Below, piece by piece: positions 224-11,245 of a stretch of 64,000 nt of DNA. This DNA is from a virus. Taxonomy: Duplodnaviria; Caudoviricetes. The DNA is taken from positions 4,412-68,411 of the IMG/VR virus record IMGVR_UViG_3300011008_001623; one strand, given 5' to 3'. The position numbers and the translations under genes were made by a program. A model generated the notes under the pieces. It saw only the letters and a program-made list of their open reading frames with translations. It did not search any database and was not told the origin of the DNA. How positions within the stretch are numbered: position 1 is the first letter of the stretch; the number at the start of each line of letters is the position of its first letter.

Positions 224-346
224 GAATTAATTCCTTAAAGGGGCAAGGAATTAATTTCAAGGTTTTACATTTTTTGACTAAGACTGTGCGAAAAACTTAC
301 GAAAAAATTGTAAATCCAAAAAGGCGGTATTTTACCGCCTTTTGCT
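224..346 (+). ncRNA. candidate small structured RNA (ORF-less promoter-terminator unit)
   Basis: TGTACT-N17-TAAAAT with TG extension at 189-217; stacked hairpins near 226-257 and 262-318; intrinsic terminator AAAAGGCGGTA/TACCGCCTTTT at about 320-346. Confidence 0.35.
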
Positions 347-422
347 TTTCCTTCCGCAGAAGGGGCTAAAATAATGAGGAGAGATTTTTTCTCTCCTTTT
401 TATTTTTTTTCAAAAAAGACTA

Positions 423-451
423 TTTACTTTTGGCTTCAGTCATGATATAAT
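423..451 (+). promoter_or_regulatory. sigma70/SigA-type promoter for ncRNA-1
   Basis: TTTACT-N17-TATAAT with TG extended -10. Confidence 0.75.
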
Positions 452-456
452 TATTA

Positions 457-750
457 ATGTCAGGAACGTCTTTAGTAGATTTAATATGGATTAAAGCGAT
501 TTGTATTGAATTTGCGTGTACCAACTTTCAGCGTTCCACAATGTCGAGGATATTTGATGATTAGCGTACGGAATTGTCAGAAGAATTGGCGTTGTCACAG
601 TAACTTCAAGCTGGCTTTTAGGCGACATGAAGAACCTGGGTATGTTCTAACTGCCCCAAGGTATGTGTATATTTTCGCGTACCTATGTCATACTCAAGGA
701 ATAGCTCAAAAGTAACACTTTGCAGGTGTCTGGCTTTTGGGCTATTTTTT
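457..750 (+). ncRNA. structured ncRNA-1, unknown family, paralog of ncRNA-2
   Basis: Own promoter; stems GGAACG/CGTTCC, AGGTATGTG/CGCGTACCT and AATAGCTCAAAAG/CTTTTGGGCTATT plus U-tract; core 604-663 aligns with 979-1034 with compensatory changes. Confidence 0.75.
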
Positions 751-820
751 GATTTAATTGGTGGAGGAATAGACTGAGTAATTTATAAACAAATAAGGTA
801 TTAGCGATAAAAACTTTTTA

Positions 821-848
821 TTTACTTTTAAATGCATGATGATATAAT
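821..848 (+). promoter_or_regulatory. SigA-type promoter for ncRNA-2
   Basis: TTTACT-N16-TATAAT with TG extension. Confidence 0.65.
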
Positions 849-854
849 TAAAAA

Positions 855-1162
855 TGTAAGCGGAAATGCTTAGGAAAGTGAAAGGTTACGCCCTTGCAGT
901 TTTCCCATACCATATTAAGTATTTCTAATTACATGCCTTTATTCGAATTGGAGCTATTTGAATAATTGGCAAGGCTATCTTCAACCTGCTTTAGGCAATC
1001 GAAGAGTCCTCGGCATGACATAACTGCCGTACGGTGAGATGAATCTTGCTCAATTCGATTTTACCAAACCATAATGGCATTTAATTACAGTTTCCTGTAT
1101 TTATGTTGAGAACACACTAGTCATTATGGAAAAAAGAGATATCTTTCGGGATATCTCTTTTT
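855..1162 (+). ncRNA. structured ncRNA-2, unknown family, paralog of ncRNA-1
   Basis: No ORF; stems GGAAATGCTT/AAGTATTTCT, TGCC/GGCA enclosing ATTCGAAT/ATTTGAAT, CGGCA/TGCCG, GGTGAGAT/ATTTTACC and CCATAATGGC/GTCATTATGG; ends in a terminator. Confidence 0.75.
1131..1162. terminator. bidirectional intrinsic terminator
   Basis: AAAAAGAGATATC-TTTCGG-GATATCTCTTTTT between ncRNA-2 and the convergent CDS. Confidence 0.85.
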
Positions 1163-1965
1163 TAATGCCTTAATCTAGCGACACGAGTATTTAGACATCG
1201 CGATTCATAATCATCACTAGATACATATACTTTTTTAACACCTAATTCGCTTTTTACAAGATTAGGAAGACTTTCAGACATTTTGCCACTTACAACATCA
1301 ATAAAAGCAAGATTACCTTTAATATGTCCAAAACAAAGACTTGAAATGTCTAATGTTTCTTCTATTAATTCAATAGAATCTTCTCTTTGTGACAAACTTT
1401 CTAATTCTTCCGCAAGAAATTCAAAATCTTCATCATCTTTTTGTGATTTAGCATAATCCGCTAAAGATTCAGTATGAGTCTGGCCATTCTTTCCTTTAAT
1501 AACAATGTCATTATTAATAACAATAAAGGGATAATCTCGATTATATGTATCTAAACGCAAAGTAAAAAATTGTGTTCCAATTGGTTCATTACTTTTTTCT
1601 AATTCTTCTAAAGGAACATCTTTATTATTGGCGATTAAATCCTGTAAATCTCCTAATTCAGGAGATACAAAATATTCTTTTTTATCAATGTCATTCAAGA
1701 TATAATCTTGAATTTTGTAGTATAAATCATAATCTATATATCCAGCAATTTCTTCTGCATTATTTTTGTATTCTTCATTGTTTTTATCAATTAATGGAAT
1801 ATAAGAATCAATTGCTTTTAACATATCATTTTTATTATTCTTTTTATTATTTTCTTCATATTTGCCTTTTTCAAAGTAATAGTCAATAAAATCTGGAATA
1901 CTGAATTCTTCAAAAGCTTGTTTGATTAATAATTCGATATTGTTGGCTTTTTTTAATCGCTTCAT
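1162..1965 (-). CDS. hypothetical acidic protein with MKRLKKA leader; C-terminal domain paralogous to a domain of 25549..27588
   Basis: 267 aa ORF; NRD..I..........TH...L, FGH....AFI and KVY...RVA.L motifs shared with the 679 aa protein. Confidence 0.85.
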   Translation of the reverse strand: MKRLKKANNIELLIKQAFEEFSIPDFIDYYFEKGKYEENNKKNNKNDMLKAIDSYIPLIDKNNEEYKNNAEEIAGYIDYDLYYKIQDYILNDIDKKEYFVSPELGDLQDLIANNKDVPLEELEKSNEPIGTQFFTLRLDTYNRDYPFIVINNDIVIKGKNGQTHTESLADYAKSQKDDEDFEFLAEELESLSQREDSIELIEETLDISSLCFGHIKGNLAFIDVVSGKMSESLPNLVKSELGVKKVYVSSDDYESRCLNTRVARLRH

Positions 1966-4860: not shown

Positions 4861-5671
4861 TGAAATTGGAATGCGAATGAAACATGATTATGAAGATCGA
4901 TATAGATTTGAATTAACGCGTAGAGTACCTGTAATAATTCGAATTGATGGGAGAAGTTTTCATAGTTTCTGCAAAAACCTTGCCAGACCATACGATATGG
5001 TCTTTAAGTTTTCTATGTGGGAAACTGCTAAGGCATTATGTGAAGAAATAATGGGTGCAAAAATAGCTTATGTTCAGTCTGATGAAATTTCTATTTTAGT
5101 ATTAGATTACTCTAATAAAATTGGAACGGCAGCTTATTTTGATTATAATGTACAAAAAATATCTTCAGTAACTGCAGCTTATGCCACAATGGCATTCAAT
5201 AAAGCTTTTTCTGAAAATGTAGCAGAAATGTATTCTCAAATAGATACTCAAAATTCCAAAATAATGAAAGTATATCATGATATATATGGGAAATGTTTGT
5301 ATAAAGCTACTTTTGATTCTAGAGTATTTAATATTCCTGAAAAAGAAGTTTGCAACTATTTTATTTGGAGGCAATTGGATGCTACCCGTAATAGTATTCA
5401 AATGTCTGCCAGATGTGTATTTTCGCAAAAAGAATTACAGAATATTAGTACTAAAAAACTGCAATATAAAATGTTAACAGAGAAAAATGTAAATTGGAAT
5501 GATTATCCTACTTTCTTTAAACGTGGAGTTTGTATTGAAAAAAGAAAAGTCGTATTAGAATCATCAAATAAAGGTGTAGTAGAACGGGAAAAATGGTTTG
5601 TCAATAATGAGATTCCTATTTTTACTCAGGATAGAGATTATATTGAAAATTTGTTAAAATTGGAGAATTAA
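4850..5671 (+). CDS. thg1: tRNA(His) guanylyltransferase Thg1-like protein (3'-5' polymerase)
   Basis: IIRIDGRSFH, YVQSDEIS, FDSRVF, NYFIWRQLDATRNSI and FKRG motifs. Confidence 0.93.
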   Translation: MNFDEIGMRMKHDYEDRYRFELTRRVPVIIRIDGRSFHSFCKNLARPYDMVFKFSMWETAKALCEEIMGAKIAYVQSDEISILVLDYSNKIGTAAYFDYNVQKISSVTAAYATMAFNKAFSENVAEMYSQIDTQNSKIMKVYHDIYGKCLYKATFDSRVFNIPEKEVCNYFIWRQLDATRNSIQMSARCVFSQKELQNISTKKLQYKMLTEKNVNWNDYPTFFKRGVCIEKRKVVLESSNKGVVEREKWFVNNEIPIFTQDRDYIENLLKLEN

Positions 5672-5845
5672 ATGTGTAATTGTTTGTGTAAAACGTGCCC
5701 TCATAAAATAGAGTGTAATTTGTGTTTAATATGCAATACAAGAGAGTCATTTGGAATGTCTCCATATGAGATTAAGGATTGTTTATTGAATAAAAAAACA
5801 AAAAACATTAGAGATGATTCTAGGAGGTGTAGTGATGGTCATTGA
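5672..5845 (+). CDS. 57 aa Cys-rich peptide (9 Cys)
   Basis: MCNCLCKTCPHKIECNLCLICNTRES...; GGAGA RBS; starts 1 nt after the thg1 stop and overlaps the radical SAM start. Confidence 0.6.
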   Translation: MCNCLCKTCPHKIECNLCLICNTRESFGMSPYEIKDCLLNKKTKNIRDDSRRCSDGH

Positions 5846-7331: not shown

Positions 7332-7493
7332 ATGGAAAAAACACTTCCAAGGCAAAGATTGGAAATTATTTCGAAAATTGACAAAGATACATTGCATTTT
7401 AGAATTGTTAGAGATAATGAGACTAAAAAAGAGTTTTTGATTTCTATATTTTCTACAATTCATGGAGTATCAATGGACGTAAAGGAGTTGTAA
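7332..7493 (+). CDS. 53 aa hypothetical protein
   Basis: ORF below track cutoff (MEKTLPRQRLEIISKIDK...), fills the operon gap. Confidence 0.55.
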   Translation: MEKTLPRQRLEIISKIDKDTLHFRIVRDNETKKEFLISIFSTIHGVSMDVKEL

Positions 7494-7495
7494 AT

Positions 7496-7867
7496 ATGAA
7501 GTATCGCAATGATTTTGTTACCAATTCAAGTTCATCTTCTTATATTTGTGAAATTTGCAAAAGAGAAGATTCTGGTTATAACTTAGGACTTAGTGATTTA
7601 GGATTTGTAGAATGTGTAAATGGACATGTTTTTTGTGAAGAACATTTAATTAATAAAGAAACCAACGAAGATGAAGAATTTGATTCTTGGGGTGTTCCCT
7701 CGGAATATTGTCCAATTTGTCAATTTAAAGAAATTAGCAATGATGATTTAGATATTTACAAAAATGTTTTATTAAAGAAATCAAATGATGAATTAAAAGA
7801 ACAAATTAAAAATGGATTTAAAGACTACAATAATTTTAAAAAGTTCTTAGAAAAAAATAGGAAGTGA
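7496..7867 (+). CDS. FVTNSSSS-leader protein with Zn-binding motifs
   Basis: MKYRNDFVTNSSSSSY; CEIC, CVNGHVFC and CPIC motifs. Confidence 0.85.
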   Translation: MKYRNDFVTNSSSSSYICEICKREDSGYNLGLSDLGFVECVNGHVFCEEHLINKETNEDEEFDSWGVPSEYCPICQFKEISNDDLDIYKNVLLKKSNDELKEQIKNGFKDYNNFKKFLEKNRK

Positions 7868-10171: not shown

Positions 10172-11245
10172 ATGTTTTCAGAATACATTAATCAAAAATT
10201 AATTACTCGTAGAAAACAAAGAGAAGAAAAACGTAATGTAAATCAAACTTCTCAAGTAGTTAAAGAATTAATCAATGACTTAAAACAACATAAAAATTGG
10301 AAGAAAATTTCTATTGGGAATGTTATAGAACAATACAATATTCCGGTATTAAATCGTTATCGATTAATTTACGAATTAGAATCAAATCCTCACATTATTT
10401 CAAGACCTTCACAACAATCAAAAATTGAAAATGAAATTGCGCATACGATTCCTTTTGAATATAAATATGTGAGCAAAAGAGAAAAAGAAGATTTAAATTG
10501 TAATGCTAATTGTTTTAGAAAAATTGTAGGAGAGAGAAAAACATTTATTGTAGAACGTTTTTCTAAGTACAAAACAGATTTGTCTCTATACGATCGATTA
10601 ACTGTATTGAATACGTTGTATTCGCATAGCGCAGATAAAAAATTCGTAAAACTTTCATTAGCAAAATTGTTAGATGAAATTGGAATAGATATAGAAAAAT
10701 TTGCACAAGTAATTGATTATTTACAAGAATGTAAATTGTTGGTTATAAAAAATATTGAATATCAAAAAAACGGATTAACTTTTATTTGTAAAATTACGAA
10801 AAACGAAAATGGGTTTTGGTTATTAAGTAAATTGGAATTAAAGAATACGATTAAAATGATTTATGATAATACAAATCCAGTAAAAACAAAACCTAGAAAT
10901 AAAGAAAAAGTAAATCCACCTCCTAAATCAATTGGTATTGATGAATGTAAAAAGCTTTTAACTAAATTTAGTCAAGAAAATTTGGATTTAAGAGATGAAG
11001 TGAAAATTCTTGAAAAACGAGAAGAACAATACAAAGAGAAAGAAAAGAAGTTAAGTGATTTTTATGACGAGTATCAAGGTTATTGTTTTGATTGTTTAAC
11101 TGAGTTTTTAGGAAATACAATTAATTCAATTAGAAATGAAATAACTACGCATCCTGAACATGAACAATATTTACGTAAATTAAACAAGAATATTTTAGAT
11201 TTAGGTTCAGATTTTTCCAACAAGTTAATTAATTACTCAAAATAA
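10172..11245 (+). CDS. hypothetical protein (possible DNA-binding protein with coiled coil)
   Basis: ATG 10172 after AGGAGG; own promoter TTTACA-N17-TATAAT at 10119-10147. Confidence 0.8.
   Translation: MFSEYINQKLITRRKQREEKRNVNQTSQVVKELINDLKQHKNWKKISIGNVIEQYNIPVLNRYRLIYELESNPHIISRPSQQSKIENEIAHTIPFEYKYVSKREKEDLNCNANCFRKIVGERKTFIVERFSKYKTDLSLYDRLTVLNTLYSHSADKKFVKLSLAKLLDEIGIDIEKFAQVIDYLQECKLLVIKNIEYQKNGLTFICKITKNENGFWLLSKLELKNTIKMIYDNTNPVKTKPRNKEKVNPPPKSIGIDECKKLLTKFSQENLDLRDEVKILEKREEQYKEKEKKLSDFYDEYQGYCFDCLTEFLGNTINSIRNEITTHPEHEQYLRKLNKNILDLGSDFSNKLINYSK

Follow-up and report, generated by a model that had tools for sequence, protein, structure and literature searches.

The tRNA regions of phage genomes hide RNAs that are not tRNAs and whose roles have been open for decades, including species 1 and 2 of phage T4, ROOL and GOLLD. 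The two T4 RNAs, rnaC (species 1, 139 nt) and rnaD (species 2, 119 nt), are small, stable and encoded in the tRNA cluster of that phage. Ribozymes of the twister, pistol, hatchet and HDV-like/theta classes are dispersed across phage genomes, tRNA regions included. With regard to fold, luteovirus frameshift knots (BWYV) and the preQ1-I and SAM-II aptamers are built from a short first stem (S1), a first loop (L1) of two nucleotides of which the first is C, a 1-nt junction, and a third loop (L3) that carries adenines and runs across the S1 minor groove. ROOL (RF03087) and GOLLD (RF01998) are phage or prophage RNAs, often beside tRNA islands, which are pseudoknotted and apparently protein-independent (PMC12286853). 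Theta ribozymes are small pseudoknotted Caudoviricetes RNAs beside phage tRNA genes, with a cleavage site within about 5 nt of the tRNA (PMC10879173).

Here we describe an RNA motif present twice in a 64-kb stretch of phage DNA (the window), which spans bases 4412-68411 of a 68.4 kb IMG/VR virus record with an estimated completeness of ~41% (CheckV), and which belongs among a known kind of RNA, the phage tRNA-island RNAs of unknown function. Like rnaC and rnaD, most of its relatives would be small non-tRNA RNAs among phage tRNA genes, presumably released by tRNA-processing enzymes, and two different RNAs lie side by side, here as pairs of A and B subtypes or as the two units of the window. However, while most relatives are in tRNA clusters, a tRNA search found no tRNA genes in the window's record, and its copies have their own promoters and terminators. 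Identity with the T4 RNAs was rejected, as a search of AF158101 68000-76000 with the knot model R1 (filters off) found only 12 weak matches, the best at 12.3 bits and none of them in rnaC or rnaD. ROOL and GOLLD differ in being 10 times larger (about 580-800 nt) and forming homo-oligomeric cages, whereas the motif spans 56-90 nt across the family, matches neither model and shows no sign of forming oligomers. A ROOL copy does share the tRNA array of one relative (L004, genome G001), occupying L004:4522-5107 (177.8 bits, ~574-position model), but the motif at L004:5862-5953 and the units of the window all lie outside it.

Results

Two tandem, separately promoted RNA genes

The two units are arranged head-to-tail between a double terminator (319-398) and a convergent gene on the minus strand (1162-1965), and their features are collected in Table 1. 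A sequence-only reading of this locus had described two tandem units, each with its own promoter and terminator, and this was borne out: both promoters score 10/12 in a promoter scan, making them the top two sigma-70-type sites in the first 3 kb, and the units close with terminal hairpins and U-runs ending at ~752 and ~1163, the second of which is bidirectional and also terminates the convergent gene. Alignment of unit 1 with unit 2 showed identical promoters and a conserved core, and both unit RNAs folded better than shuffled controls (z-scores in Table 1). The same reading had seen no credible ORF in either unit, and we also found none; the sole frame near the unit 1 start (457-564) is reduced to ATG-TAA in unit 2 and is shifted by a 1-nt indel in the close relative L244. 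In L244 an extra gene sits between the orthologues of units 1 and 2, and because they can be separated in this way the two units are autonomous. Units 1 and 2 are real: two paralogous genes for non-coding RNAs, each with its own promoter, in a large uncultured phage.

Table 1. Features of the two units, in window positions. Ends of the unit RNAs are approximate.
Feature	Positions	Strand	Details
Unit 1 promoter	423..451	+	-35 TTTACT, 17-nt spacer, TG-extended -10 TATAAT; kept in relative L244
Unit 1 RNA	458..752	+	from ~7 nt past the -10 to the terminator U-run; MFE -94.7 kcal/mol, z = -4.9
Motif copy 1	600..656	+	G600..A603 flank; P1 604-608/628-632 around mini-hairpin 610-623
Copy 1 knot			S1 633-635/644-646; L1 CU 636-637; S2 638-642/652-656; L2 U643; L3 C647 and UAAC 648-651
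Unit 1 hairpin 3' of the knot	660..683	+	GGUAUG/CGUACC; absent or different in other family members
Unit 1 terminator	703..752	+	long hairpin then U-run; loop ~716-731 carries ACUUUGCAGGUGUC
Unit 2 promoter	821..848	+	TTTACT, 16-nt spacer, TG-extended TATAAT; kept in L244 and L238
Unit 2 RNA	855..1166	+	MFE -94 kcal/mol, z = -5.6
Motif copy 2	974..1029	+	G974..A977 flank; P1 978-982/1001-1005 around mini-hairpin 985-995
Copy 2 knot			S1 1006-1008/1017-1019; L1 CU 1009-1010; S2 1011-1015/1025-1029; L2 U1016; L3 A1020 and UAAC 1021-1024
Unit 2 terminator	1130..1163	+	A-run, 8-bp stem 1136-1143/1150-1157, U-run

Several further features were observed around these genes. The ACUUUGCAGGUGUC carried by the terminator loop of unit 1 recurs in the terminator loop of a relative of the L092 type; the sequence common to the two loops (716-731 in unit 1, minus strand in the L092-type gene) is ACUU(U)GCAGGUGUC, while their stems differ, and this conserved, exposed loop, which unit 2 lacks, could be a seed or kissing loop. 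Additional short ORF-less promoter-to-terminator units adjoin units 1 and 2, at G000:C1:3900-4150 (upstream of the window) and at window 240-400, with promoters TTTACT...TGTGATAAAAT and TTTACA...TGTGATAAAAT followed by 60-80 nt and then a terminator, and this end of the record has the look of a small-RNA gene island. The motif gene of the L092/L240 phage likewise has another small promoter-terminator unit 3' of it. Just upstream of the island are three tandem genes for TerD-like proteins (G000:C1:2005-3840; GDNRTG..GDDE motifs read from sequence), and the 267-aa neighbour gene, corresponding to window 1162-1965 on the minus strand, is present twice in tandem at L238:1073-2662, with copies 97% and 44% identical.

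A compact motif with three covarying helices

The sequence-only reading had described two paralogous ~300-nt RNAs, and while the units are indeed paralogous, the conserved element makes up only ~56 nt of each (56 nt in unit 2). Its core pattern, CCTNGGNATGNNNTAACTGCC, is found only at 635-655 and 1008-1028 in the window, with 0 occurrences expected (100 shuffles, even with 1 mismatch). In the proposed layout a helix termed P1, of at least 5 bp and enclosing a variable, subtype-specific domain of 18-46 nt, stacks directly onto an H-type pseudoknot with an S1 of 3-4 bp, an S2 of 5 bp and a 1-nt junction; copy 1 has an additional optional S1 pair, G632-C647. The consensus reads, 5' to 3', G-N-N-A; P1; S1 (NUC); CU; S2 (NRGYA); N; S1' (GAN); N; UAAC; S2' (UGCYN), where the UAAC of L3 is GAAC in one of 20 sequences. 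The S1 and S2 pairs had been stated correctly for both copies, which differ in these stems by three double substitutions and one single substitution, and the CUUC/GAAG stem proposed to precede them is real and corresponds to the P1 of the family. The GGU-led stem proposed to follow them is present in unit 1, but it is specific to the subfamily and not a family feature.

Covariation was assessed in an alignment (A4) of 20 distinct sequences, gap-free at both ends, in which all three helices are 100% paired. Compensatory changes occur in all five pairs of P1, and since P1 was outside every search pattern and its register is fixed by invariant anchors (the flank G and A on one side and the C of S1 on the other), this helix provides an unbiased test of whether the sequences form one family. 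S1 and S2 were partly pre-selected, because the search patterns fixed or restricted several of their positions and matches were kept partly on pairing, and with this caveat S1 shows double changes in two of three pairs, S2 shows them in two of five pairs with one more alternating between U-G and C-G, and P1, S1 and S2 together show compensatory double changes in 9/13 pairs. As a control, sliding the partners by 1-3 columns lowered pairing to 30-47%, and no shuffle reached the observed covariation score. U-G pairs are present in S2 in 14 of the 20 sequences, which fits the plus strand acting as RNA only. The invariant stem pairs are the C-G at the top of S1 and a G-C and an A-U in S2, and a U-A pair in S1 is near-invariant. 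An additional helix between GNNA and UAAC, which would have formed a three-way junction (helix X), failed the covariation analysis with inner pairs only 50-70% paired; its constant pairs are the terminal G-C and A-U only, and these were retained as two possible tertiary pairs. It is well supported that the motif is a real structured RNA family with three covariation-backed helices.

Searches of RNA catalogues and genomes

The sequence-only reading had proposed a comparison with Rfam and had not matched the units to tmRNA, RNase P, SRP, 6S or common riboswitches and ribozymes. Searching the whole window with Rfam 15 (4227 models) gave 0 matches at gathering score, and none of the models for these RNAs matched; at E<=10 the region 250-1300 returned terminator-driven noise only, with nothing over 600-656 or 974-1029, and the spacers of relatives in L004 and L006 gave nothing. 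Likewise, BLASTN of the whole region, the unit 2 motif and the A-type motif against 50,697 GenBank phages found no match, and among the matches listed from three pattern scans of 185,579 prokaryote species (one genome each) there were only coding or chance occurrences. A pattern built on the sequence of P1 and its mini-hairpin (CTTCAA..CTG..CTTT..AGGC) was discarded, as all of its 15 viral matches were chance. As far as these searches reach, the motif appears confined to uncultured phages.

The family is new in that it has no match in the catalogues and papers searched, although one catalogue holds 8,495 phage RNA candidates as unnamed 'DNAVirus_X' models (PMC10690425), which could include it. 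The earlier proposal of an unannotated phage RNA family under structural selection is thus upheld, with Rfam 15 silent and the copies in other phages preserving both S1 and S2 via compensatory changes, and the conserved structure now extends 5' to P1 and the G..A flank.

Relatives are found mostly in phage tRNA arrays

Relatives were gathered by exact-pattern scans of viral and metagenome contigs; the matches were mostly chance, falling in coding DNA without pairing or P1/GNNA context, and the set that was kept is non-coding and fully paired. Members in viral contigs belong to genomes G001 (L004), G002-G004 (L006 and others), G005 (L092), G006 (L301) and G007 (L307), with three copies (A, B and C) per genome in G002-G004 and two in G007, and about a dozen metagenome contigs carry further members. 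Among the contigs are close relatives of the window's phage, such as L244 with both units and L238 with unit 2 and the same downstream genes. Units 1 and 2 with their orthologues, together with the L092/L240 type, are stand-alone promoter-to-terminator genes, and most other members are inside phage tRNA arrays. In these arrays the 5' end of the motif lies 50-597 nt after the preceding tRNA, and seven different members have a tRNA (Asn, Ser, Met, His, Trp or Gly) beginning 4-11 nt 3' of S2'; the motif precedes only 1-3 tRNAs per array, and the isotypes vary. Members with P1 show no consistent downstream ORF, being followed by a tRNA, another RNA module, or a terminator and fresh promoter. The absence of a consistent ORF, together with the tRNA 4-11 nt downstream in seven members, argues that the motif is not a cis-regulator.

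Members of the unit-1/2, L092 and array types have only the motif in common. Subtypes of the P1 domain are themselves conserved, with a B-type followed by an A-type in the same order in three phage lineages (G002, L236 and L239), a pairing that parallels the joint retention of units 1 and 2 in L244 and suggests non-redundant specificities. In comparison, the phages that carry the motif have little else in common. The portal protein of the window's record shares 21-24% identity with its counterparts in G001, G002, G006 and G007 and could not be detected in G005, and BLASTP against four carrier records found only 2 ORFs of the record with weak matches (E<=1e-4) in at least two of them, both in G001 and G002, with nothing beyond these as a shared phage protein partner. 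By these sequence comparisons, the carriers are very distantly related large phages sharing almost no protein similarity.

We also found pseudoknot-only look-alikes, without P1, in intercistronic gaps of ~75-kb viral contigs (L100, L108, L094, L102 and L107), where they lie 10-20 nt upstream of ribosome-binding sites, carry CU, a junction U and (U/A)AAAC, and covary in both stems. L100 contains two copies with covarying stems, the second found by model and not by pattern. These are probable relatives of the knot alone, and their placement would point to a cis role should the relationship be real. One look-alike precedes a gene whose product, read by eye, resembles a SleB-like cell-wall hydrolase.

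Discussion

A putative stable RNA that may act in trans

We consider the best explanation to combine two parts, and would put our blended confidence in them at roughly one half. The first, which concerns the genes, the family and the fold taken jointly, is highly probable; the second, that the motif works within a stable RNA acting in trans and docked to a conserved component of the host, is tentative. Since the motif is the only part shared across the unit-1/2, L092 and array types, it would form the functional core of a small stable RNA, which would be either transcribed from a promoter of its own or excised from tRNA-array transcripts. In the arrays, where a tRNA starts 4-11 nt after S2', RNase P, in cutting at the following tRNA, would yield an upstream product that ends only 4-11 nt beyond the knot. 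Such an RNA would act in trans, with a rigid triplex-type knot as the docking surface and the RNA serving as a decoy or sponge for a conserved host component, for which a translation or RNA-processing protein is the likeliest candidate. The trans-acting reading is favoured because the motif is the sole conserved part, is present in several diverged, subtype-specific copies, and is carried by phages with almost no recognisable proteins in common; the near absence of recognisable shared proteins also favours a host over a phage partner, and the retention of the motif by such phages points to a target in conserved host machinery.

The layout of the knot is that of the triplex H-type knots, in which conservation is concentrated in the loop bases and in the stem pairs that we take them to contact. 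By analogy with solved pseudoknots, the C and U of L1 may form base triples in the S2 major groove with the invariant G-C and A-U pairs, and the L3 adenines may do so in the S1 minor groove with the invariant C-G pair and the near-invariant U-A pair. From their position, the G and A of the flank could pair with the C and U of L3. The invariant loop bases and stem pairs would then be those expected in a triplex knot, but they could equally serve catalysis or ligand binding. The motif differs from the known triplex knots in its obligatory P1 and G..A flank, in not being upstream of a regulated gene, and in having no Rfam match, and, lying outside ORFs, it is no frameshift signal.

A bolder reading is unlikely, namely that the motif is the core of a new class of functional RNA deployed by large phages like an extra tRNA, either a small ribozyme or a decoy for a universally conserved host factor, with the P1 subtypes (A/B, units 1/2) giving the copies different specificities. 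In practical terms, the small size of the motif suits direct structural and biochemical work and its invariant bases are sharply defined, while the stand-alone, strongly promoted copies in the window offer a clean handle (gene, promoter and terminator) for probing the role of such RNAs.

Alternative explanations

The knot could instead be a cis-acting structural cap or roadblock, a stable triplex that shields an adjoining pre-tRNA, mRNA 5' end or sRNA body from exonucleases and 5'-end-dependent RNases, or that insulates folding units. If, as we infer, the conserved loop bases are those needed for base triples, stability alone could explain their conservation, and the position of the knot is also suitable, being 4-11 nt before tRNAs, 2-4 nt before a hairpin in the stand-alone units and, in the look-alikes, 10-20 nt before ribosome-binding sites. 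Nonetheless, it would be odd for a mere cap to be the sole part conserved between stand-alone subfamilies, or to be provided for so few tRNAs of each array and for such varied isotypes, and a cap has no need of P1, the G..A flank or conserved subtype-specific P1 domains. xrRNAs, which stall 5'-3' exonucleases with a pseudoknot-closed ring of RNA around the 5' strand, have a loosely similar layout, with a three-helix junction and a loop-tail pseudoknot, but on our reading of the fold the motif probably does not thread its 5' strand through a ring. We regard the cap as unlikely.

A new small ribozyme, self-cleaving or other, is quite unlikely, although the motif is small, places invariant unpaired nucleotides at helix junctions and occurs as several diverged copies per genome in varied contexts near tRNAs, and theta ribozymes demonstrate that phage tRNA regions do host ribozymes (PMC10879173). 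No Rfam 15 ribozyme family matches even at E<=10, including the HDV models, which are silent on the motif, and we saw no positive sign of self-cleavage. The order of a hairpin, a strand and a loop-pairing strand does resemble P3/L3, P1 and P1.1 of theta ribozymes, but membership of the HDV-like/theta group was rejected: the motif has one pseudoknot only, where the HDV-like fold is a nested double pseudoknot of P1, P1.1, P2, P3 and P4, the position of P2 is taken by a local hairpin (the P1 of the motif), and nothing follows S2' that could supply P4, J4/2 or P2. A P2 that the 3' end would close, a P4 and the catalytic C at the start of J4/2 are all missing, and the loop-tail helix is 5 bp and not 2 bp. 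The theta placement of the cleavage site close to the tRNA is also not seen, as the motif lies 5' of tRNAs and not 3', far from the previous one at its 5' end, and because the distance from the knot to the next tRNA varies over 4-11 nt the knot cannot fix the tRNA 5' end.

A small-molecule aptamer, riboswitch-like or orphan, of the size and topology of preQ1-I, SAM-II/V, fluoride or guanidine-III would account for an H-type pseudoknot with invariant loops and for the look-alikes just upstream of ribosome-binding sites in another phage group. However, the P1-bearing members have neither a downstream ORF nor an expression platform, and the look-alikes leave the ribosome-binding site unsequestered, 11-13 nt past the knot. 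Comparison with the preQ1-I and other minimal pseudoknot riboswitches gave no match to RF00522 or any other Rfam 15 riboswitch family at E<=10, and no 5' leader with an expression platform. The evidence argues against a cis riboswitch, and an aptamer of any kind is very unlikely.

Still less probable is a copy of a piece of host rRNA, tRNA or other housekeeping RNA, such as the 23S GTPase-associated centre (H42-H44, E. coli 1051-1108), of which no recognisable copy was found, and rRNA mimicry is already largely refuted. The tip of the A-type P1 domain, GGC-UUACAACG-GCC, resembles what we take to be the E. coli 23S H43 tip, GGC-UUAGAAGCA-GCC, and a tRNA-array context would fit a translation-related decoy; yet this tip is confined to the A-type form of a variable domain, units 1 and 2 lack it, and the H44-like 'AAUAG' is simply the 3' strand of the covarying P1. 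Furthermore, the knot model R1 scored <=6.4 bits anywhere in the E. coli rrn operon (filters off), and no rRNA (including LSU), tmRNA, RNase P, SRP or 6S model matches the elements. Finally, chance similarity or a DNA-level signal with no RNA function would fit the fact that most database matches to short patterns are chance in coding DNA, but has a negligible probability given two window copies against 0 expected, three helices fully paired in 20 sequences with compensatory changes and G-U pairs, and consistently non-coding settings, when the chance matches are without pairing and P1/GNNA context.

Other modules in the tRNA arrays

Known RNAs are also present in these loci, with a phage tmRNA at L006:10283-10683 (G002/G003) beside the ROOL copy of the G001 array described above, and a group I intron was seen at L003:6174-6355 in an unrelated chance-match contig. 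Several motif copies are preceded, at a distance of 40-60 nt, by a recurrent array module, (G)ACCCAGAC(G/A)GUC, which looks like a hairpin pairing GACC with GGUC around a CAGAC loop; it is found at L006 ~5640-5660 (upstream of copy B), L004 ~5830-5845, and in L235, L236 and L239. The motif-bearing tRNA array of L235 additionally contains a suppressor-type tRNA (7460-7535, minus strand) with anticodon UUA reading UAA (ARAGORN), and this phage may recode a stop codon. Lastly, a small hairpin is repeated within these tRNA arrays, often directly 3' of a tRNA (L006:5880-5900, 5522-5545 and 10686-10745; L235, L236, L239, L252 and L301); the window's record has none. The stem of this hairpin is 4 bp long and covaries (CCGG/CCGG, CCAG/CUGG, CAAG/CUUG, UGAG/CUCA and others), and its invariant 8-nt loop, GUUAACGU (GCUAACGU once), holds the palindrome GUUAAC, complementary to the UAAC of the motif and to GUUA flanks.
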